NCBI GenBank assembly: GCA_018221305.1
Contig: JAAOYK010000056.1
Coordinates: 26,863-90,862, forward strand
Source of the DNA: Candidatus Pacearchaeota archaeon
Lineage (GTDB): Archaea > Nanobdellota > Nanobdellia > Pacearchaeales > GW2011-AR1
DNA length: 64,000 bases
Reading direction: 5' to 3'
The notes beneath the pieces were generated by a model, which was not told the origin of the DNA, did no database searches, and saw nothing but the letters and a program-made list of their open reading frames with translations. Made by a program: the position numbers and the translations under genes. This document shows positions 5,651-17,700 of this stretch, piece after piece (position 1 is the stretch's first letter; the number at the start of each line of letters is the position of its first letter).

Positions 5651-6064
5651 TTAAATCTTCAAAACAATCAACTTTGTGTTACCAAGATTTGTTCTTTTAA
5701 TAACTTCTCTTTGTTCTAATTCCATTAAAACCCTGGAAATTTTTACTTTATTTATTCCAGTTAGGGCAACAATCCTATTTTGTTCTAATGCATTATTATT
5801 TTTAATTAATACTTTTACAATTTTTCTTTGAATTTCTGGAAGAATTTTTAATACTTTTTCTAACTGCACCTTGTTTATCTTCCATTGAAATAACATTACA
5901 ACAAAACCTCCAATAATGATTGAAACAAAAGAGATAGCATACATTATCAGCGGGAGGGACTGATCAACTTCTTCTGTATAAATCCCATTAACAACTGCAA
6001 ACATTACTCCAAGTAAGAAAATTGCTACAAATCCTATGACCAACTTTTCTGATGATACTTCCAT
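5651..6064 (-). CDS. membrane-anchored winged-helix (MarR/TrmB-like) transcription regulator
   Basis: Two N-terminal TM helices, then ALEQNRIVALTGINKVKISRVLMELEQREVIKRT, typical of a wHTH. Confidence 0.45.
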   Translation of the reverse strand: MEVSSEKLVIGFVAIFLLGVMFAVVNGIYTEEVDQSLPLIMYAISFVSIIIGGFVVMLFQWKINKVQLEKVLKILPEIQRKIVKVLIKNNNALEQNRIVALTGINKVKISRVLMELEQREVIKRTNLGNTKLIVLKI

Positions 6065-8177: not shown

Positions 8178-8297
8178 ATTGATAAATGGGTTTATCATAT
8201 ATTTTAGAATTATAAAATTTGCTAATAATCCTGATGATGTTTAATTATTATACTCTTTTATAAGTAACTTTAAATTCTCTGGTATTTTCTTCTTTTA

Positions 8298-8753
8298 ATG
8301 GTATTAAAGCAGGTTATTGGTGGTGTTGTGTTATTATTTATTATTATTTTATTTATTAATTTTCTGGCGACTCCTAATAAGCCTGAATTTTTAAAAAATG
8401 GGTTTGGAAAAATTGTTGAATTTGTTAAAAGCCCCCCTATTACTGGAAGTGCTGTAGCTGATGTGCAAGAAGAACCGATCCGATTTTTAAGCTTAAGAGG
8501 GCTTGATAACAATCCTTCAAAATATTTAGGTGATATGGTTGAGATACGATTTGTTATGGGTGGGGAGTTTTATTTGGATGGTATTTATCATATTTATGAT
8601 TCTAGTGGTAATTCTTTTAAAGTAAAAAAGAATAATTTTGAGTTTTCTGAAGGTGAAGAATATCTAGCCTTAGGTGTAGTTAAAAAGGAGACACGTTTGT
8701 ATCTTTATAATAAGGTTACTGTTTATTATGTGAGTGTTTCAAAAGTGTTTTAA
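8298..8753 (+). CDS. hypothetical membrane-anchored protein
   Basis: N-terminal TM helix (VVLLFIIILFINFL) followed by a soluble domain. Confidence 0.35.
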   Translation: MVLKQVIGGVVLLFIIILFINFLATPNKPEFLKNGFGKIVEFVKSPPITGSAVADVQEEPIRFLSLRGLDNNPSKYLGDMVEIRFVMGGEFYLDGIYHIYDSSGNSFKVKKNNFEFSEGEEYLALGVVKKETRLYLYNKVTVYYVSVSKVF

Positions 8754-8894
8754 AAGTGTTTTAAAGTCTATTTTTATAAGACTTCTTGTTGTGTATAAAA
8801 TAATACTACAGAATAATAAACTTTAAAAGGGCGTTCTCGCTCTATAATTAGAATTATTTTAAGAGGTGGATACTAGAGATGATAGGAATCATGA

Positions 8895-10337
8895 ATGGAT
8901 CCACTAAAAATTGCTATTGTTGATGATAAAGTTGAATACGCAGAAAAATTGCGAAAAGAATTAAGACGTTCTACTGGTATTCTTGACAAATTTAAGATTA
9001 ATTATCAGATTTGGGATTCTTCTTATGAGTCTTTGGATGCACGAGATTTTGTACGAACTAAACCTGATGTTCTCTTACTTAACGAAAATGTTTCTAATAG
9101 GTGTGGGTTTGAAATTTGTAGAGAGATTAAAAAAATGAGTCCATTTACGTCTGTGATTTTAACCTCAGGAACTCCGGCATTTAGAAGTTATCGGCAATTA
9201 CGAGATGCCCTAAATCAAGATGATGTGCCTTTGGATGGTATTATTGATGAAGGTTTGACTGTAACAAAAAAACAAAGAGTGTTGAGATCAAATTTGCGTA
9301 AACCATTAAACCTTGCAGTTTTAGGGTTAGGATATTTGGGTGTTGGGTTTATGCAAAACTTTTTAGAAATGCCTGAGGTTGCAAAAGTTAATGGTTTTAG
9401 TGAAAGAGAAAAAACGCCTGGAGAGGGGATTGTTGATTATGATAGTGTTTATAAATTATTAGAAGTCTTAGACCAAGGATATGGCCAGAATGATAAGCTT
9501 AATTTGTTGAATAGTTTAGAAGAGGCTGTAAGTAATACTGATGCCGTAGTTATTGCTACTTCTGCTATACATGGATCGAGTCTTGGTAAGGTTGCTAAGA
9601 CCCCTCATCGAATGGATTTAATAGACGTTGAAGGGGACAAAATTTCAAGATATTGTCAATTGCTCCATGATGTTGGATATAATGGTCTTGTTACTATTTT
9701 TACAAATCCTGTTGGGGGTAATTTAACTTTAGGGCGAAAAGTAGGGCTTGAATGTGGGCAATTAACATCTTCTATAAATATTGATGAAGAAAGATTACAT
9801 ACTGCTGCAAAAGCGGTTTTAGGTAATAATTTTGACGGGTTTTTTAAGAAGTTTTATCAAATTGTTGGGGATCATGGGGATGCGCATCTTGCACAGTTGC
9901 ATGGTGGTTATGATGATATACAACGCTTTACTGCTGATTATCGTCGTGTTAAGGATGCTATTAATGATGTTCTTTTGCAGGCGCGCCAGATGGCTCCTGA
10001 TTCTATGAAAGCGTCTAGTGATACTGGCATGCCTTATTATAAGTCTCAGCTGCATGGTTCAAAAATGTTTGCCAAACTTGCACGGTTTGGTTTTAATGGT
10101 ATTGATAGCGCGTATTGTTATGCTAATATCGGTGATCAAAAAGGATATTTAGCACTTCCTGTCAAAGTTGATTATTATCCTGAAATAAGATTTTATCCTG
10201 ATTCAGAGGTTATTAATGATTTGGATGGATCAACTATTCAAGGGCTTGAAGATCGGCTGAAATTTCAAGGATTATATGTTGAAAATTTTTTAAGGCATAG
10301 GGAGAAAAATGAAAGAAAAAATCATGCAAGTGTTTAA
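8895..10337 (+). CDS. fusion of a degenerate response-regulator receiver (REC) domain to an L-lactate/malate dehydrogenase-like NAD-binding domain
   Basis: N-terminus KIAIVDDK...DVLLLNENV is CheY-like, but the phospho-acceptor position is Asn rather than Asp. C-terminal part has LAVLGLGYLGVGF (GxGxxG), FTNPVGG (compare TNPVD) and IVGDHGDAHLAQ (compare GEHGDS), which are LDH/MDH signatures. Confidence 0.5.
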   Translation: MDPLKIAIVDDKVEYAEKLRKELRRSTGILDKFKINYQIWDSSYESLDARDFVRTKPDVLLLNENVSNRCGFEICREIKKMSPFTSVILTSGTPAFRSYRQLRDALNQDDVPLDGIIDEGLTVTKKQRVLRSNLRKPLNLAVLGLGYLGVGFMQNFLEMPEVAKVNGFSEREKTPGEGIVDYDSVYKLLEVLDQGYGQNDKLNLLNSLEEAVSNTDAVVIATSAIHGSSLGKVAKTPHRMDLIDVEGDKISRYCQLLHDVGYNGLVTIFTNPVGGNLTLGRKVGLECGQLTSSINIDEERLHTAAKAVLGNNFDGFFKKFYQIVGDHGDAHLAQLHGGYDDIQRFTADYRRVKDAINDVLLQARQMAPDSMKASSDTGMPYYKSQLHGSKMFAKLARFGFNGIDSAYCYANIGDQKGYLALPVKVDYYPEIRFYPDSEVINDLDGSTIQGLEDRLKFQGLYVENFLRHREKNERKNHASV

Positions 10338-11046
10338 GTCGATTGGCTTGGCAAAAAATGAAATTAAGGTTTATTTAGACCTAGTCCAGTATGGGCTTTC
10401 ATCAGCCTTAGAAATCTCTAGACGGATAGGGATACATCGACCAAATACTTATGACGCACTACGCGGATTGATTGAAAAAGGATTTATTACAGAAACTGTT
10501 AAAGAAAATAGGAAATGTTTTGTTGCTGTTAATCCTGAAAGGATTACTGAATATGTTATGCAAAAAAAGCATGATGTTGAAGAAGTTATTCCGTATTTAA
10601 AGGATTTTACAAAAAAGATTGAAGGTGATGAAGAAGTTTATATTACAAAAGGTGTATATGCTTTTAGAAATGCATTGATAAGTTTATTAGAACTTAATAA
10701 GCCTATAAATATTTCAGGAATTCCTATTGGGTCTCATGATGTCTTAGGTGATGGGTTCTTGGCTGATTTTCATGATCGACGAATAAAGAAAAAGATTTTA
10801 ATGAGGCATATCTATAATAGGGAAGCAACAGATAGGGTAAAAGAATTGAATAAATTGCCTTATACTGAAGCAAAGCATTTAGCACGAAAGTATGATGCTG
10901 ATGTTAGCATAAATATTTGCGGAAATGTGGTTTTAATGGTTATCTTTAGTAATCCTATATCTATTATAGAAATTAAAAACAAAGAAATTGCTGCTACCTA
11001 TAATAAGTATTTCGAGATTCTATGGAAGCATGCGAAAAGTGCATAA
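10324..11046 (+). CDS. TrmB-family transcriptional regulator
   Basis: N-terminal HTH LAKNEIKVYLDLVQYGLSSALEISRRIGIHRPNTYDALRGLIEKGFI is typical of TrmB. The track ORF starts at 10309; the start was moved to MQVF. It overlaps the end of the upstream gene. Confidence 0.55.
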   Translation: MQVFKSIGLAKNEIKVYLDLVQYGLSSALEISRRIGIHRPNTYDALRGLIEKGFITETVKENRKCFVAVNPERITEYVMQKKHDVEEVIPYLKDFTKKIEGDEEVYITKGVYAFRNALISLLELNKPINISGIPIGSHDVLGDGFLADFHDRRIKKKILMRHIYNREATDRVKELNKLPYTEAKHLARKYDADVSINICGNVVLMVIFSNPISIIEIKNKEIAATYNKYFEILWKHAKSA

Positions 11047-11152
11047 TTTTATGTTACTATCCCAAAAGGGTAACTTGGTTGTCTAGAAAAATACTACCTT
11101 GCTTTTTATACAAATTTTTCTTAATATATTTATAATTTCGGAGGATTATAAA

Positions 11153-11491
11153 ATGATAGATGACATGTGTATAAGTTGTTCAGAACCAATAACAAATCCT
11201 ATTTGCTATAGGTGCTTTTTAAAGCAGATACACTTATGGCTTTATGACAAAAATTTTGAAAAAGATGTAATTAATGAAATATTGCGTGAGGTGCGCAAGG
11301 AAGTTTTTGTTGACTCATTGAGTGAGACGTGCTGTATACTCTGCGATGACGAGTATGTCGCGGTTTGCTCATATTGTGTGTTTTTTCGGGCAGCTAATGT
11401 TTTGAAACGGTTTGGCGTGAATAATGAACTTCTTGAAGATTTTTTAGAAATCTTTAATTATCAGCTAGGTCATGCCTCATACCATTTGTAG
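11153..11491 (+). CDS. Cys-rich hypothetical protein, putative zinc-binding
   Basis: Motifs CISC...CYRC...CCILC...CSYC. Likely start is MIDDMC inside the longer track ORF. Confidence 0.35.
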   Translation: MIDDMCISCSEPITNPICYRCFLKQIHLWLYDKNFEKDVINEILREVRKEVFVDSLSETCCILCDDEYVAVCSYCVFFRAANVLKRFGVNNELLEDFLEIFNYQLGHASYHL

Positions 11492-11493
11492 GT

Positions 11494-11530
11494 TTTTTTC
11501 TTTTTTTTTTCTTTTTTTTCTTTTTTATCA
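11494..11530 (+). terminator. oligo-T tracts (archaeal-type terminator candidate)
   Basis: tttttttctttttttttttcttttttttcttttttatc lies immediately after the stop codon. Confidence 0.35.
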
Positions 11531-11629
11531 GAATCAAAAAATTTATAACTATCTTTTTATTATATATAATATAAAATAGTTATTAAAACTAGAAATGTAT
11601 GAAAGGAGGTAGAAGTTTTAAAGCATAAA

Positions 11630-11982: not shown

Positions 11983-13194
11983 ATGAAAAGAGGATTGGTG
12001 TTAGGATTACTTGTTGGGATTTTTATGTTTAGTTTAGTTGGCGGAGTTTTTGCTGCTATGGAGCCTTCTGAATATAACCCTATTAATGAAGATGCTGCTA
12101 ATATTCTATCTGGGAGAATAAAAGAAGTTAGCACTCTTGGTGATGCAGGATCTTTTAATACTACTGGATGTTTTGAAAATCGGATGTTTGTAGTTGGAAT
12201 CGTTGAGGTTTTTAAGTCTGAAGATGGCTTGGAAGTAGGCGGCGATATTAATGTGGAGTTTGTTCATCAAGTAGTGCCTATTGTTGAAAAATGTGCTGTT
12301 GTTGGTGGGCGTTTTGCAGATGTTCAAGCAGGGGATGCTGTTAAAATTTATGTTAATAAGAGCGGTGAAAATTATGCTTTTGTTGTAGGGGGCTATTCTC
12401 TTGAACCGACTATTTTAGATGACGCTGAATGTACAATAGACAGTGATTGTTATCCTGATGATTTTGAGCCTGCAGACTGTGGTAATTTTTATAATTGTGC
12501 TGAAGGTGCTTGTATTGTGGGGTCTACTGCGTGTGCAAATGACACTGATGATAATAATGACTCTGAAAAACCTGATAAATTAAAATGTGATGGATTGGCA
12601 ATGAAACGGTGCAGATTACGTAAAAATTGTTATTATAATCCTCTTGATGAAAAATGTTATGATCTAAATATTGATGATATAAAAAATAGATTTCGTGACA
12701 AAATTGGTAAGGTTGTGAAACCGCATGTTGCTGAGTATCTTGATTCTTTAGAATGTCCTGAAAATTGTAAGTGTACTGGTAGTGTGATAAAATGTGAGAC
12801 TGCAAACGGCCGAGAAATGACTATTATTGCAGGACGTTCTGGTAATGTTATTTTCCAGGTTAAAGGGGTTAATGCAACAACACGTGTTGAGATAATTAGA
12901 AACGGTAGTGAGTTTATTGGAAATTTTTCTGGAAGAATGAAGCGGATTAAAATAATGCCGGATCAGGTTAAGAACAAGACCTTGAAACGGCTTAAGATGA
13001 AGAATTGTACTGAGTGCGATGTTGAATTATTAGAAGATGGATCTTATGAAATGAAAACAAAAAGAAAGTATAGAGTTTTTGGTATTTTTCCTGCAAAGAA
13101 AACTATTGTAACAAGAATTGATAGTGAAAGTGGAGAAATTATTAGCGAGAAAAGGCCGTGGTGGCGGATTATTTCTTGGAAGAGTTCAAAATAA
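11983..13194 (+). CDS. secreted Cys-rich surface protein with a signal peptide and many N-glycosylation sequons
   Basis: MKRGLVLGLLVGIFMFSLVGGVFA signal. More than 20 Cys in clustered CxxC/CxC patterns and many NxT/NxS sequons. Confidence 0.5.
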   Translation: MKRGLVLGLLVGIFMFSLVGGVFAAMEPSEYNPINEDAANILSGRIKEVSTLGDAGSFNTTGCFENRMFVVGIVEVFKSEDGLEVGGDINVEFVHQVVPIVEKCAVVGGRFADVQAGDAVKIYVNKSGENYAFVVGGYSLEPTILDDAECTIDSDCYPDDFEPADCGNFYNCAEGACIVGSTACANDTDDNNDSEKPDKLKCDGLAMKRCRLRKNCYYNPLDEKCYDLNIDDIKNRFRDKIGKVVKPHVAEYLDSLECPENCKCTGSVIKCETANGREMTIIAGRSGNVIFQVKGVNATTRVEIIRNGSEFIGNFSGRMKRIKIMPDQVKNKTLKRLKMKNCTECDVELLEDGSYEMKTKRKYRVFGIFPAKKTIVTRIDSESGEIISEKRPWWRIISWKSSK

Positions 13195-13217: not shown

Positions 13218-15824
13218 TTGTTTCTAGAATATTTTATGGATTGGCATGCATTATCATCAAAAGAGGTCGTAGAGAGGCTTGACACGTCTACAAAAGGGCT
13301 TGAAAAAGAAAAAGCTGGTGAAAAGTTAAATGAGTATGGATTAAATCGGATAAAAAAGACTCGTAAGTTTAGTGCTTTAAAGGTCTTGTTTGATCAGTTT
13401 AAATCTTTTCTAATTATCATATTGATCCTTGCTGCTATTGTTTTATTTTTTATTGATTCACAAATAGATGCGATTGTTATTATGGGTATTGTTATTCTGA
13501 ATGCATTACTCGGGTTTTCGCAAGAGTATAAGGCTGATAGGGCTATAGAACAGCTAAAGAAGATGATGACCCCTGTTGCTAAAGTTATGCGAGGGGGTAA
13601 GGTGATGAAAATAAATTCTGAACAAATTGTCCCAGGCGATATTCTTATCTTAGAGGAAGGTGACAAAATTGTTGCTGATGCTCGAGTATTGGTGTCTGAT
13701 GGTTTAAAAGTTAATGAGTCTGCATTGACTGGTGAAAGTGTTTCTCAGGCAAAACATTGTTCGCGATTAGGTTTGTCTTTAGCATTAGCAGATAGAATCA
13801 ATATGGTTTATCAAGGCACTCAAGTTGTTGAAGGCGGGGCAGAGGTTGTGGTTGTTAGTACTGGGATGCAAACAGAACTTGGGAAAATTTCAGGCCTTGT
13901 TCAAGAGATAAAGGCTGAAAAAAATCCGTTTAAAGATAACTTGGATCGTTTTGCAAAAAAGGTTGGAATTTTTATTTTGATCCTTGCTGCTGGAATAATT
14001 AGTTTAATGATGTTTAAACAGTCTGCAGAGCTTGTTGAAGCATTTTTGGTTGGGGTGAGTTTGGCAGTTTCTGCGATCCCTGAAGGGCTTCCTGCAGTTA
14101 TTTCTTTGGGCTTAGTTTTTGCAACAAAGCGTATGATTAAGAAAAATGTATTAGTTAGAAAACTTCCTGCAAGTGAAACTTTGGGGCGAGTGACTGTTAT
14201 TTGCACTGATAAGACTGGGACACTTACTGAAGAAGAGATGAAAGTGACGCGCATTTATGCAAATGGAAAAGATAATCCTGTTAAGGGTAAGGATTTGCTC
14301 TTAAAAATTGGAGTATTATGTAATAAGGCAAGGCTTGAAAAAGATGATTCTGGTAATGAATATACTTTAGGCGATCCTACTGAAATTGCGTTAGTGCTTT
14401 CTGCAAAAGATAGTTTTTTGGATAAAGCTCAATTGGAAAAACAAGAGTCAAAGATTAAGGAATTTCCGTTTAATTCAGAACGTAAAATGATGTCTGTTGT
14501 CCGTAGAAGTAAGGGTAAGGTTATATCTTATGTTAAGGGAGCACCAGAGCGTGTTATTGAGAGGTGTAGCTATGAATTAATTAATGGTAAGAAAGTAAAA
14601 TTAAATGATGCTTCAATAAAGAGGATAACTGGTAAGTATGAAGATATGGCTAAACAAGGGCTTCGGGTATTGGGTTTTGCATATAAGAAGTTATCATCAG
14701 ATAAAAATCTTTCACAAGATTTAGCAGAAAATAAGCTTGTTTTTGTTGGTTTTCAGGGGATGATTGATCCTCCAAGAAAGGAAGTAAAAAATTCTATAAA
14801 ATTGTGTAAGCGAGCAGGTATTAAGGTCTTAATGATTACTGGTGACTCTAATTTGACTGCGAACGCTGTTGCTAAACAAATCGGCCTTACTGGTGAGTCT
14901 GTTGATTCAATAGAATTACAAAATATGAGTGATAAGGATCTGCTCTCGCGTATAGATAAAATTAGTGTGTTTTCTCGTATTTCTCCAAAAGATAAACTTA
15001 GAATAATTGATATTTTGAAGCAGAAAAAGGAAATTGTTGCAATGACTGGGGATGGTGTTAATGATGCATTAGCATTAAAACGTGCAGATATTGGTATTGC
15101 AATGGGGATTCGTGGGACTGATGTTGCCCGGGACTCTTCAGACATCATACTTCTTGATGATAACTTTGCCTCAATTGTTGAAGGTGTGAAAGAAGGGAGA
15201 CGTATTTATGATAATATTAAAAAGTTTATAAAATATTTATTTTCTGCTAACTTTTATGAAGTTTTCTTGGTTGCTATTGCAATACTTATTGGGTATCCTC
15301 TACCCTTGCTGCCGCTGCAAATTTTATGGATTAATCTTGCTACAGACAGTTTTCCTGCACTGTCTTTAAGTGCTGAAGAATTAGAAAAAGATGCAATGAA
15401 ACGAAAGCCAAGAAAAGGTAGTCTTTTAGCAAGAACTGGTGGTTTTATTATGCTGGCTGGAATTGTAGGATTAATTATTACTCTTATTATGTTTTTGACA
15501 ACTTATGATAAGGCAAATCCCGATAGCTTAGCACGAGCACAAACAATTACATTAACAACGTCTGTGATTTATCAAATGTTTTTGGTTATTAATTGTAAAT
15601 CTAAGAAATTCTTTTTTAAGTCTAAATTTAATAAGTATCTCTTTTATTCAATAGTTGGTGTAATAATCGCACAATTCGTAGTGATATATTATGGGCCTGT
15701 TGCTGCACTGTTTTCATTTGTTCCTTTGACTTTGGTTGAATGGGGAAAAATTGTAGGGATTACTTTTGCAGCTTTTGTATTTATTGAACTAACTAAACCG
15801 ATTTTAAAGGGGGCACATAAATAA
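13218..15824 (+). CDS. P-type cation-transporting ATPase (P2A/SERCA-like Ca2+ pump)
   Basis: Has ICTDKTGTLT (DKTGT phosphorylation site), MITGD, VAMTGDGVNDALAL and TM segments typical of P2-type ATPases. Confidence 0.9.
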   Translation: MFLEYFMDWHALSSKEVVERLDTSTKGLEKEKAGEKLNEYGLNRIKKTRKFSALKVLFDQFKSFLIIILILAAIVLFFIDSQIDAIVIMGIVILNALLGFSQEYKADRAIEQLKKMMTPVAKVMRGGKVMKINSEQIVPGDILILEEGDKIVADARVLVSDGLKVNESALTGESVSQAKHCSRLGLSLALADRINMVYQGTQVVEGGAEVVVVSTGMQTELGKISGLVQEIKAEKNPFKDNLDRFAKKVGIFILILAAGIISLMMFKQSAELVEAFLVGVSLAVSAIPEGLPAVISLGLVFATKRMIKKNVLVRKLPASETLGRVTVICTDKTGTLTEEEMKVTRIYANGKDNPVKGKDLLLKIGVLCNKARLEKDDSGNEYTLGDPTEIALVLSAKDSFLDKAQLEKQESKIKEFPFNSERKMMSVVRRSKGKVISYVKGAPERVIERCSYELINGKKVKLNDASIKRITGKYEDMAKQGLRVLGFAYKKLSSDKNLSQDLAENKLVFVGFQGMIDPPRKEVKNSIKLCKRAGIKVLMITGDSNLTANAVAKQIGLTGESVDSIELQNMSDKDLLSRIDKISVFSRISPKDKLRIIDILKQKKEIVAMTGDGVNDALALKRADIGIAMGIRGTDVARDSSDIILLDDNFASIVEGVKEGRRIYDNIKKFIKYLFSANFYEVFLVAIAILIGYPLPLLPLQILWINLATDSFPALSLSAEELEKDAMKRKPRKGSLLARTGGFIMLAGIVGLIITLIMFLTTYDKANPDSLARAQTITLTTSVIYQMFLVINCKSKKFFFKSKFNKYLFYSIVGVIIAQFVVIYYGPVAALFSFVPLTLVEWGKIVGITFAAFVFIELTKPILKGAHK

Positions 15825-16444: not shown

Positions 16445-17077
16445 TTAACAAACTTCAATGATTGGGGCAAGAAGTTTTTTGTATGAACATTCGATTGTTT
16501 TGTCAGCAATTTCCCCGTAAACTTGAAAACTTGTTGCTAGTGGCTGTATTTCATTGGCTTCTAGGTATACTTCTTCAGATGTGCTGTCAATCTCTGATGA
16601 ATTTTCTTTATTAATTATTAAAAAACCAATCTCAAAGTTTCCTCCAGTTTCTCCCCAATTTTGTACTGTAAGTGAGCAAGAGATTTCTTTATCAATGCAC
16701 TGGCTTTGGTTATATTCATTACATATTGTGTTTTGCACAAAATTGCCTAAAATGTATGGATTTCGTTTGTAAATGCATCCTGGTTGGGTGATTGGGGTTT
16801 CTCCGTCACCTCCTGCGCCGCCGCCACCACCACCGCCTGCGCCGCCGGTGCTAGGTTTTGTAGTTCCAAGTTCTCCTAAATTTTCTGGATCAATTCCGTC
16901 TCCGGCAGTAATTTCATCAAAATATTCTGGACTTTGTGGCTTAAATATTGTTTTAAGTATTGGAACTTCTGATAAAGACCTTCGTAGTTTTTTGTTTGAT
17001 AATATGTTAATAGTTAAAGTCATTGAAATTAAAAGAATGCTAACAGCAACGATAATTATTTTACTTCCTTTTTCCAT
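16445..17077 (-). CDS. membrane-anchored secreted protein with a poly-Gly linker and Cys-rich domain
   Basis: N-terminal TM, then GGAGGGGGGGAGGDGE linker and a C-terminal domain with 6 Cys. Confidence 0.4.
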   Translation of the reverse strand: MEKGSKIIIVAVSILLISMTLTINILSNKKLRRSLSEVPILKTIFKPQSPEYFDEITAGDGIDPENLGELGTTKPSTGGAGGGGGGGAGGDGETPITQPGCIYKRNPYILGNFVQNTICNEYNQSQCIDKEISCSLTVQNWGETGGNFEIGFLIINKENSSEIDSTSEEVYLEANEIQPLATSFQVYGEIADKTIECSYKKLLAPIIEVC

Positions 17078-17120
17078 GATTGTTGAATGTTTTTTATGTT
17101 TATAAACATTTCAATAATCT

Positions 17121-17129
17121 TTTTAAAAT
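17121..17129 (+). promoter_or_regulatory. TATA-box-like ttttaaaat about 27-35 nt upstream of tRNA-Thr
   Basis: Position and sequence are consistent with the other tRNA upstream boxes. Confidence 0.3.
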
Positions 17130-17155
17130 GAGATGTTCTAACTTAATTGATATGC

Positions 17156-17282
17156 GCCGCAGTAGCTCAGTTTTGGTTAGAGCGCGTCATTGGTAATCTA
17201 AAGATCTTAATTGATTTTTATCTTTTAAGATTCATAGAATCTAAAAATGACGAGGTCCCGGGTTCGAGCCCCGGCTGTGGCT
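17156..17282 (+). tRNA. tRNA-Thr (anticodon GGT) with a ~51-nt intron at the canonical 37/38 position
   Basis: Acceptor GCCGCAG/CTGTGGC, D-arm GCTC..GAGC, anticodon stem CGTCA...TGACG. The loop TTGGTA is followed by an AT-rich insert (17196-17246) before A38. T-arm CCGGGTTCGAGCCCCGG. Confidence 0.7.
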
Positions 17283-17295
17283 TTGTATCTTCTTA

Positions 17296-17700
17296 ATGAG
17301 CATAATCTTTAAAAATAATAGATTAATAGTATTTTCATCCTATTTTAGGAAAAAAAGTTCTGATAAAATTAATATGGTAATAGACAAGAAAGTTGAAGTT
17401 GATGGTGAGCAAGTCTTTGATAATAAACATATCTGGGTTGTTATAGATGGTCAAAAAGATTGGGCTAATAAGGATGCAGGTGGGCATGGGTTTATTTATA
17501 GAAATTTTATCGGAGCTTCTAAATCAAAAGCAAATGCTTTAGAACAAGCTTATAGAAAAATGGATTTTATTGGTGGGGATTTCACATTAAAAAATCAGAC
17601 TGATTGTTTTGTTCAGTATGAAGGAGAGGTACGTAACTATTATGTTTCGATAATGAAATATGATCTAGATGGCCCAAGTGTTTTTGATATGAACCATTAA
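17296..17700 (+). CDS. hypothetical protein
   Basis: The true start may be MVIDKK at 17374. No motif recognised. Confidence 0.35.
   Translation: MSIIFKNNRLIVFSSYFRKKSSDKINMVIDKKVEVDGEQVFDNKHIWVVIDGQKDWANKDAGGHGFIYRNFIGASKSKANALEQAYRKMDFIGGDFTLKNQTDCFVQYEGEVRNYYVSIMKYDLDGPSVFDMNH

Follow-up and report, generated by a model that had tools for sequence, protein, structure and literature searches.

A pseudo-receiver/dehydrogenase-like fusion protein encoded in a conserved module with a TrmBL2-like regulator in DPANN archaea

A 64,000-nucleotide stretch of contig JAAOYK010000056.1 from a Candidatus Pacearchaeota archaeon (assembly GCA_018221305.1), referred to below as the window, is AT-rich (∼32% G+C) and carries on its forward strand a gene at positions 8895–10337 (stop codon included, from the list of open reading frames (ORFs)) for a 480-residue protein. 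In this protein an N-terminal receiver (REC) domain is joined to a domain of the L-lactate dehydrogenase (LDH)/malate dehydrogenase (MDH) superfamily. Its gene overlaps by 29 nucleotides, in a different frame, a second forward-strand gene (10309–11046) that encodes a 245-residue DNA-binding protein resembling TrmBL2. Response regulators with enzymatic output, pseudo-receivers, LDH/MDH enzymes and TrmBL2-like regulators are already known; what appears to be new is the combination, the linkage of the two genes and a variant in which the dehydrogenase-like domain is fused to a protein kinase. The reading preferred here, tentative and given somewhat less than an even chance, is that the fusion gene is the first gene of a module in which a trigger-enzyme-like dehydrogenase, belonging to an atypical response-regulator family of DPANN archaea, reports the redox or 2-oxoacid state to the TrmBL2-like regulator.

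Searched singly, the 480-residue sequence matched two Pfam families below their thresholds, Response_reg (E = 6e-4, 20.4 bits with 30.2 required) and Ldh_1_N (E = 0.04, 14.4 bits with 27 required), and its matches in the PDB were weak, with response regulators at E ∼ 0.005 and one L-LDH at E = 0.15. A profile made from 54 sequences of its family aligned with full-length LDH/MDH chains (E = 4e-21, covering chain residues 2–320 of 331) and with the response regulator 3a0r_B over its whole length (E = 2e-12). The AlphaFold model obtained with the 54-sequence alignment reached a pLDDT of 91.1 and a pTM of 0.92, compared with a pLDDT of only 37 without the alignment. It comprises five β-α units with the flavodoxin-like (βα)5 fold of a receiver (residues 4–132), followed by a Rossmann domain and then by an α/β domain of the LDH C-terminal type. 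Most 10-residue blocks of the receiver part had pLDDT values >88, those of the loop at residues 91–110 being lower (65–70). When the model was compared with the PDB by Foldseek, the top matches were all L-LDH or MDH and were aligned to residues ∼133–480 (E ∼ 1e-11), with target-normalized TM values of 0.72–0.76 over ∼350 aligned columns at 13–17% identity.

The REC domain was thus placed at residues 1–132 (8895–9290, forward strand) from Pfam, PDB alignments, the model and column counts, and the LDH/MDH-superfamily domain at residues 133–480 (9291–10334, forward strand) from profile-PDB alignments, Foldseek and conservation. The linker between the two consists of five residues, N-L-R-K-P, of which the proline is almost invariant in the 13 closest relatives, and the linker motif R-K/R-P-L is conserved. 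A first-pass annotation made from the DNA sequence had proposed a C-terminal LDH/MDH fold on the strength of GxGxxG, TNPVGG and GDHGD motifs. These were located at residues 144–149 (GLGYLG), 270–275 and 325–329, and profile, Foldseek and model agree on the fold; the structure prediction recommended in the same annotation returned both the (βα)5 receiver and the LDH/MDH fold.

That the architecture is unusual, as also proposed, was borne out. The 480-residue protein and its relatives P0005 and P0031 all fall short of the cut-off of every curated family in Pfam and NCBIfam. The NCBIfam models for LDH and MDH gave no match to the 480-residue protein and scored far under their cut-offs with P0005 and with the LDH-like protein of locus L078. 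The LDH-like domain is therefore a member of the LDH/MDH superfamily that lies outside every named LDH or MDH family. The protein is a 100% match of an NCBI entry entitled “response regulator [Candidatus Pacearchaeota archaeon].” No paper describing a REC-LDH fusion was found, and targeted literature searches on such fusions, on DPANN TrmB proteins and on Pacearchaeota signaling turned up neither the family nor the module, which does not fully exclude an earlier description.

A word-indexed search with the 480-residue protein returned a single relative, P0002, at 36% identity. An exhaustive search of 1.84 billion representative proteins was performed with a hidden Markov model (HMM) of the C-terminal 350 residues of the 480-residue protein and P0002. 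This close-pair profile gave 58 matches, nearly all of 380–570 residues with the dehydrogenase part beginning at residue ∼120–190, and no canonical LDH or MDH of 310–330 residues was among them. Response_reg was detected by Pfam in 22 of the 54 aligned members (E ≤ 0.01, best 4.7e-12), Ldh_1_N in 12 and Ldh_1_C in 4, and the mean column identity of the alignment is 17%. Judged from these comparisons, the fusions of REC and LDH-like domains form a distinct and very divergent clade. All named members come from metagenome-assembled genomes (MAGs) of Pacearchaeota or “Nanoarchaeota” and are annotated as hypothetical protein or response regulator; the family has so far been found only in DPANN archaea, under Pacearchaeota, Woesearchaeota and Nanoarchaeota labels.

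The active site of a receiver is defined by five residues, and domains in which conserved active-site residues are missing are termed aspartate-less receivers (ALRs) or pseudo-receivers (PMC12632262). In the window protein the acidic pair after β1 is present (D10 and D11, within IVDD; D or E in 34/54 and 35/54 sequences at the two family columns), as is the Ser/Thr after β4 (Ser91; Ser in 27 and Thr in 15 of the 54). The phospho-acceptor after β3 has been lost: the position is occupied by Asn63 (codon AAC, 9081–9083; within LLLNENV, residues 60–66), in a family column that holds Asp in 36/54 and Asn in 5/54, and PDB alignments place LLLN opposite LLLD/VMLD of the response regulators 3cnb and YycF. 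The lysine after β5 has also been lost, its place being taken by Glu119 (9249–9251; Lys in 28/54). The CheY-type receiver with an Asp-to-Asn replacement described in the first-pass annotation is therefore confirmed in fold and in the position of the asparagine, to which the missing β5 lysine can be added. By these residues the window receiver classifies as an aspartate-less pseudo-receiver, predicted not to be phosphorylatable in the normal way, and with Asn63 and Glu119 in its pocket it would have to work without phosphorylation.

Within the family the state of the pocket varies. About two thirds of the members retain a canonical receiver; in the 24 receiver-carrying ORFs of species-representative genomes, the acceptor is Asp in 16 and the β5 residue is Lys in 15. 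In the closest relative, P0002, the acceptor is likewise Asn and the β5 lysine is likewise gone. Acceptor states of Asp, Asn or Ser are interleaved among the 13 closest relatives, a pattern that suggests repeated and recent losses of the pocket.

The catalytic residues of LDH/MDH were mapped through HMM alignments to solved structures (6qss, 6h9s, 4plc and 4plt) and counted over the 54 sequences. His195 and Asp168 form the proton-relay pair needed for LDH/MDH catalysis. Their equivalents are H327, kept in 53/54, and D297, kept in 51/54. The equivalents of Asn140 (N271) and Arg171 (R300) are kept in all 54 sequences and that of Arg109 (R239) in 46/54. The three glycines of the GxGxxG motif, G144, G146 and G149, are kept in 53/54, 52/54 and 46/54, respectively. 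This conservation pattern argues for what is expected of a working enzyme and not of a decayed pseudo-enzyme. An aspartate at the end of β2 (Asp53) favors NAD over NADP. In the 480-residue protein the position is held by Ser169 (Ser in 44 and Thr in 7 of 54), which stands opposite the Asp of “…vvlfD” in one profile-PDB alignment and is ambiguously placed in the family-profile alignment. Together with the protein's own Arg171 two residues on, Ser169 hints at the use of NADP(H). Specificity position 102 is Gln in LDH and Arg in MDH. It is His226 in the 480-residue protein and His or Arg in 34/54 relatives, which may point to a substrate bearing an additional negatively charged group.

The product of the overlapping downstream gene matched the Pfam TrmB helix-turn-helix (HTH) family PF01978 (E = 1e-16; 60.8 bits against a cut-off of 25.6). 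It was aligned end to end with TrmBL2 (PDB 5box; residues 14–242 against 15–260, E = 6e-5), whereas the sugar-sensing TrmB aligned through its N terminus only. Tyr48 and Asp49 are invariant in 10 orthologues and correspond to Tyr50 and Asp51, the DNA-recognition residues of TrmB (PMC4158304). TrmBL2 is without the ∼70 C-terminal residues that hold the sugar-binding site of TrmB, in which the binding residues are G320 and E326 (PMC4158304). The 245-residue protein also stops before the region of G320/E326 and consists of a winged HTH and a middle domain only. The description of this gene as a sugar-responsive TrmB regulator is therefore unjustified; the protein is, by alignment, a TrmBL2-like regulator without a recognizable effector domain of its own. 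Its orthologues are 35–57% identical in 10 loci and are better conserved than the fusion proteins.

The contigs of twelve members of the fusion family were looked up for a TrmB-type gene of 240–257 codons, and such a gene was adjacent or very close in 10 of the 11 informative loci. It lies immediately downstream on the same strand in seven (the window, L001, L004, L007, L009, L011 and L012), is upstream and divergent in L013 and convergent within 0.75–1.6 kb in L006 and L008, and is absent from the 3.7-kb contig of L005. Outside this count are L010, the locus of P0013, where the contig ends right after the fusion gene, and P0020, where the overlapping downstream gene has no family on record. 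Same-strand downstream linkage extends to members only ∼20–23% identical to the 480-residue protein, and the remaining genes of the neighborhood differ between loci. The coupling of the two genes noted from the window sequence is thus real as a 29-nucleotide overlap and conserved in evolution.

Linkage was also assessed from the side of the regulator. A scan with the partner protein in one genome per species yielded 206 relatives, of which the best 80 loci, nearly all DPANN-labeled, were used. An LDH-like gene was present within 4 kb in 40 of the 80 (HMM on six-frame ORFs). A 20-sequence profile recognized 37 of these neighbors, of which 21 lay upstream in the same orientation, 9 were divergent, 5 were convergent and 2 lay downstream. 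At partner-profile scores of at least 300 bits, 25 loci had an LDH-like neighbor and 2 informative loci had none; the corresponding numbers were 9 and 17 at 250–300 bits and 6 and 14 below 250 bits. Close orthologues of the window regulator are thus nearly always linked to an LDH-like gene, and distant, paralogue-like members are often unlinked. Eleven loci (L037, L045, L049, L052, L055, L060, L072, L073, L077, L080 and L086) come from records titled “uncultured Methanosarcinales archaeon” and carry a DPANN-type TrmBL2-like gene, some with an LDH-like neighbor as well; the taxonomic labels of these records look doubtful.

Other attachments to the LDH-like domain were found beside the same regulator. 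In two loci from Nanoarchaeota/Nanoarchaeia MAGs (L078:1939–3987 and L081:727–2514, both on the + strand), the encoded protein has an LDH-like domain at its N terminus and a Hanks-type Ser/Thr kinase after it (Pkinase E = 6e-33 in L078 and 1e-35 in L081). Both genes overlap the start of an orthologous TrmBL2-like gene, and both proteins retain the equivalents of R109, N140, D168, R171 and H195. In four further loci the LDH-like domain encoded near a TrmBL2-like gene bears a C-terminal extension of 300–500 residues without a Pfam match (L066:1058–3076, L073:869–3355 and L062:411–3047, all on the − strand, and L049:5707–8223 on the + strand). As far as these sequences go, what stays constant is the LDH-like domain together with the regulator, and the receiver is one of several interchangeable attachments.

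A third gene, at 11153–11491 on the forward strand of the window, encodes a 112-residue protein with eight invariant cysteines arranged as two CxxC…CxxC pairs. Its ORF is listed from a TTG at 11099, and the homologues in L001, L011 and L012 align from the ATG at 11153. The gene follows the regulator in the window and in these three loci, and its product was detected by HMM in 24 of the 80 TrmBL2-like loci, including some without an LDH-like neighbor (for example L024, L035 and L040). Matches of this 8-Cys protein in Pfam, NCBIfam and the PDB were at chance level only; it is probably zinc-binding. A 130-residue ORF that follows the TrmB-type gene in L009 was considered as a homologue and rejected, as it is not homologous. 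Receiver, LDH-like, TrmBL2-like and 8-Cys coding sequences each occur only once in the 64-kb window. Directly after the three-gene module of L011 lie genes for a CCG-domain protein, a 640-residue FAD_binding_4 protein and a 4Fe-4S ferredoxin (8295–11544, + strand). They resemble glycolate/lactate oxidase systems of the GlcD/LldEFG type, a possible hint to 2-hydroxyacid metabolism.

A regulator that has no sensor, genes that overlap and an LDH-like domain repeatedly joined to signaling domains together suggest that the dehydrogenase supplies the input of the regulator. In such a scheme the dehydrogenase domain would bind and turn over NAD(P)H together with a 2-oxo or 2-hydroxy acid, the substrate probably carrying a second anionic group, given the His or Arg at position 102. 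By signaling the redox or metabolite state to its TrmBL2-like partner, it would provide the sensing that this regulator is without. The receiver may modulate either the coupling to the regulator or the oligomeric state of the enzyme, under the control of phosphorylation in the approximately two thirds of relatives that are canonical and independently of phosphorylation in the window organism. There it would serve, for example, as a fixed-state or interaction domain, acting through the very short link from α5 to the first Rossmann strand. The linkage and the kinase-fusion variant suggest an unrecognized DPANN signaling module, and a broader version of the proposal, possible but doubtful as it stands, is a signaling system in which an intact LDH-fold core with interchangeable partners would read the redox or 2-oxoacid state and, together with the 8-Cys protein, control a TrmBL2-type protein.

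Several observations weigh against the trigger-enzyme reading. A regulator with no role beyond controlling transcription of the operon would account equally well for the adjacency and overlap of the two genes, and a physical interaction between the two proteins is something we only infer. Conserved catalytic residues suit a plain enzyme equally well. The regulator family is not strictly dependent on the LDH-like protein, as half of the 80 TrmBL2-like loci, for the most part those that are more distant, are without an LDH-like gene inside the 4-kb range. Both single-sequence Pfam scores of the 480-residue protein lie under their gathering thresholds. The canonical NPVD motif reads NPVG (Asp replaced by Gly274), and Ser169 replaces the NAD-selecting aspartate. 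Finally, no histidine kinase that could phosphorylate the canonical members was seen in the inspected neighborhoods of the relatives, which were surveyed as loci only.

The main rival to the trigger-enzyme reading is an ordinary 2-hydroxyacid dehydrogenase tuned by its receiver, with the TrmBL2-like protein as the transcription factor of the operon and no signal from enzyme to regulator. This is a serious alternative, if on balance an unlikely one. It accommodates the conserved catalytic residues and glycine motif and the oxidase-like genes downstream of the L011 module; fusions of REC to thioredoxin reductase and PPDK provide precedents (PMC5847659), and regulators of the TrmB family are typically encoded beside the genes they control (PMC4158304). 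It sits less easily with a partner whose missing effector-binding tail leaves it no means of sensing a metabolite on its own, with a linkage that survives at ∼20% protein identity while other neighbors change, and with the recurrence of the LDH-like domain, joined to a kinase or to long extensions, beside the same regulator, which is more typical of signaling than of housekeeping. The idea put forward in the first-pass annotation, that the LDH-like domain is a non-catalytic sensor of a metabolite or NADH (a pseudo-enzyme) and the protein purely regulatory rather than an enzyme, is distinctly less probable. Fusion to signaling domains, tight linkage to a transcription factor, the extreme divergence from working LDH/MDH and the replacement of both the NPVD and the β2 aspartates would fit such a sensor. 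Pseudo-enzymes normally lose the catalytic residues, however, and here these are all present and near-invariant despite a mean column identity of ∼17–29%, which disfavors a sensor in place of an enzyme. Of the two findings that the annotation had named as telling against its own proposal, the full catalytic set is indeed there, and an N-terminal domain of some fold other than a receiver is not. A regulatory role remains plausible, as that of an active trigger enzyme instead of a dead sensor.

That the window protein is a classical response regulator, driven by a histidine kinase through phosphorylation, is very improbable. The complete D/DD/T/K set of most relatives and the NCBI name “response regulator” point in this direction, and against it stand Asn63 at the acceptor position, Glu119 in place of the β5 lysine and the same two losses in P0002. 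Neither HisKA nor HATPase_c was among the best 25 of 54 families for the 58 window ORFs, no histidine kinase was found in the 10 large window ORFs scanned singly, and the window holds no second receiver. The chance that the fusion is an artefact, either a false ORF or the product of an assembly or frameshift error that merged two genes, is negligible, since the fusion recurs in many independent assemblies (NCBI, JGI, ENA and Logan) and in ∼57 clusters when grouped at 50% identity, the linker motif is conserved and the full-length model has a high pTM.

The trigger-enzyme reading can be set against systems already known. Nearest by profile in the LDH/MDH superfamily are the apicomplexan-type LDH/MDH (4plc and 4plt), the LDH-like NADP-MDH of Methanocaldococcus (1hye and 9sd3) and L-2-hydroxyisocaproate dehydrogenase (1hyh). 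The fusion protein shares with LDH/MDH the two-domain fold, GxGxxG, the five catalytic equivalents and a long substrate loop comparable to the apicomplexan insertion, and differs in its low identity, NPVG, Ser169, the His or Arg at position 102 and the fused N-terminal receiver. Its order of domains, a receiver and then an enzyme, is that of CheB, REC-thioredoxin reductase and REC-PPDK. Unlike other response regulators with enzymatic output, it has an output domain of LDH/MDH fold, is tightly linked to a separate DNA-binding protein and, in the window member, is aspartate-less. The REC fusions in a census of archaeal two-component proteins include those with thioredoxin reductase, PPDK and PP2C among others, and none with LDH/MDH (PMC5847659). 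With ALR domains the 480-residue protein has in common a receiver fold without the active-site Asp and Lys; unlike other ALR domains it is archaeal (DPANN), is fused to a dehydrogenase and belongs to a family that mixes canonical and degenerate receivers. The partner resembles TrmBL2 (PF0496/TK0471; 5box) in its winged HTH with the Tyr-Asp pair and in length (245 against ∼264 residues). Its similarity to TrmBL2 is weak and, unlike TrmBL2, it falls in a DPANN orthologous group of its own, defined by LDH-like adjacency. TrmBL2 has been described as a chromatin protein of high abundance that acts as a global repressor, and it is not known to have a dedicated partner (PMC4158304 and PMC3031468).

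Proteins of this type, seen so far as effector-less chromatin proteins or repressors, would gain a possible dedicated partner if the proposal holds. Trigger enzymes and dehydrogenase-like co-regulators are known in the pairs RocG-GltC and glutamine synthetase-TnrA of B. subtilis, in the eukaryotic CtBP and in the NADH sensor Rex. The proposed mechanism is like these in that an NAD(P)-binding fold would inform a DNA-binding protein, a likeness that is one of analogy only, with no homology. DPANN archaea have tiny genomes with few recognizable regulators, and how they sense their own metabolic state or that of a host is largely unexplained. The two- or three-gene module, confined to DPANN-labeled records if the doubtful labels are set aside, is a concrete candidate for a means by which they adjust transcription to their metabolic or redox state and, if the proposal is true, would be an archaeal counterpart of metabolism-transcription coupling of the CtBP/Rex type. 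The LDH/MDH fold is a new output domain in the response-regulator repertoire, and the alternation of canonical and degenerate receivers among close relatives makes the family well suited to tracing the origin of pseudo-receivers and their function after the loss of phosphorylation.

Upstream of the fusion gene, the forward-strand segment TGTATAAAATAATACTACAGAATAATAAACTTTAAAA at 8792–8828 is identical in 30 of 37 nucleotides to positions ∼5338–5374 of L011, although the encoded proteins are only ∼31% identical; the local alignment scored 44, and the best of 200 shuffled controls reached 29. The segment contains AATAATA-N6-AATAATA, the second half of which is AATAACA in L011, and ends in the TATA-like TTTAAAA. 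On this similarity the segment is a candidate promoter or operator for the module. Farther upstream of the gene, an inverted repeat, AAGTCT-N9-AGACTT (8764–8784), flanks a second TATA-like element, ATTTTTATA. Strings similar to this repeat occur upstream of relatives, namely AARTCTATTTTTA in L005 and AGAYTTCT in L005 and L007, and L007 and L005 share a short TATA-proximal resemblance, TCTAGAYTTCTGC. Beyond the match between the window and L011 and such short TATA-proximal resemblances, no convincing shared operator was found in the upstream regions of 10 loci. AGAYTTCT and TCTAGA were rejected as operator motifs, both being common in these AT-rich genomes.

Among other genes seen in the loci, L012 carries at 16550–17392 (− strand) one whose product has Pfam matches to sigma-70 regions 2 and 4. 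It lies on a 324-kb contig together with genes for the archaeal ribosomal proteins L24e, S28e and L7Ae. Unless the L012 assembly is chimeric, a DPANN archaeon with a sigma factor of bacterial type would be an oddity. In the window, a reverse-strand gene at 5651–6064 encodes a 137-residue protein whose N-terminal part has hydrophobic, membrane-like segments and whose C-terminal part is a DUF7343 domain. This domain resembles a DNA-binding HTH, and the protein may be a membrane-anchored regulator. Two further forward-strand genes lie at 11983–13194 and 13218–15824; the first encodes a 403-residue Cys-rich protein that has a hydrophobic segment at its N terminus and is not matched by Pfam, and the second, which follows it, an 868-residue P-type cation ATPase (E1-E2 ATPase).

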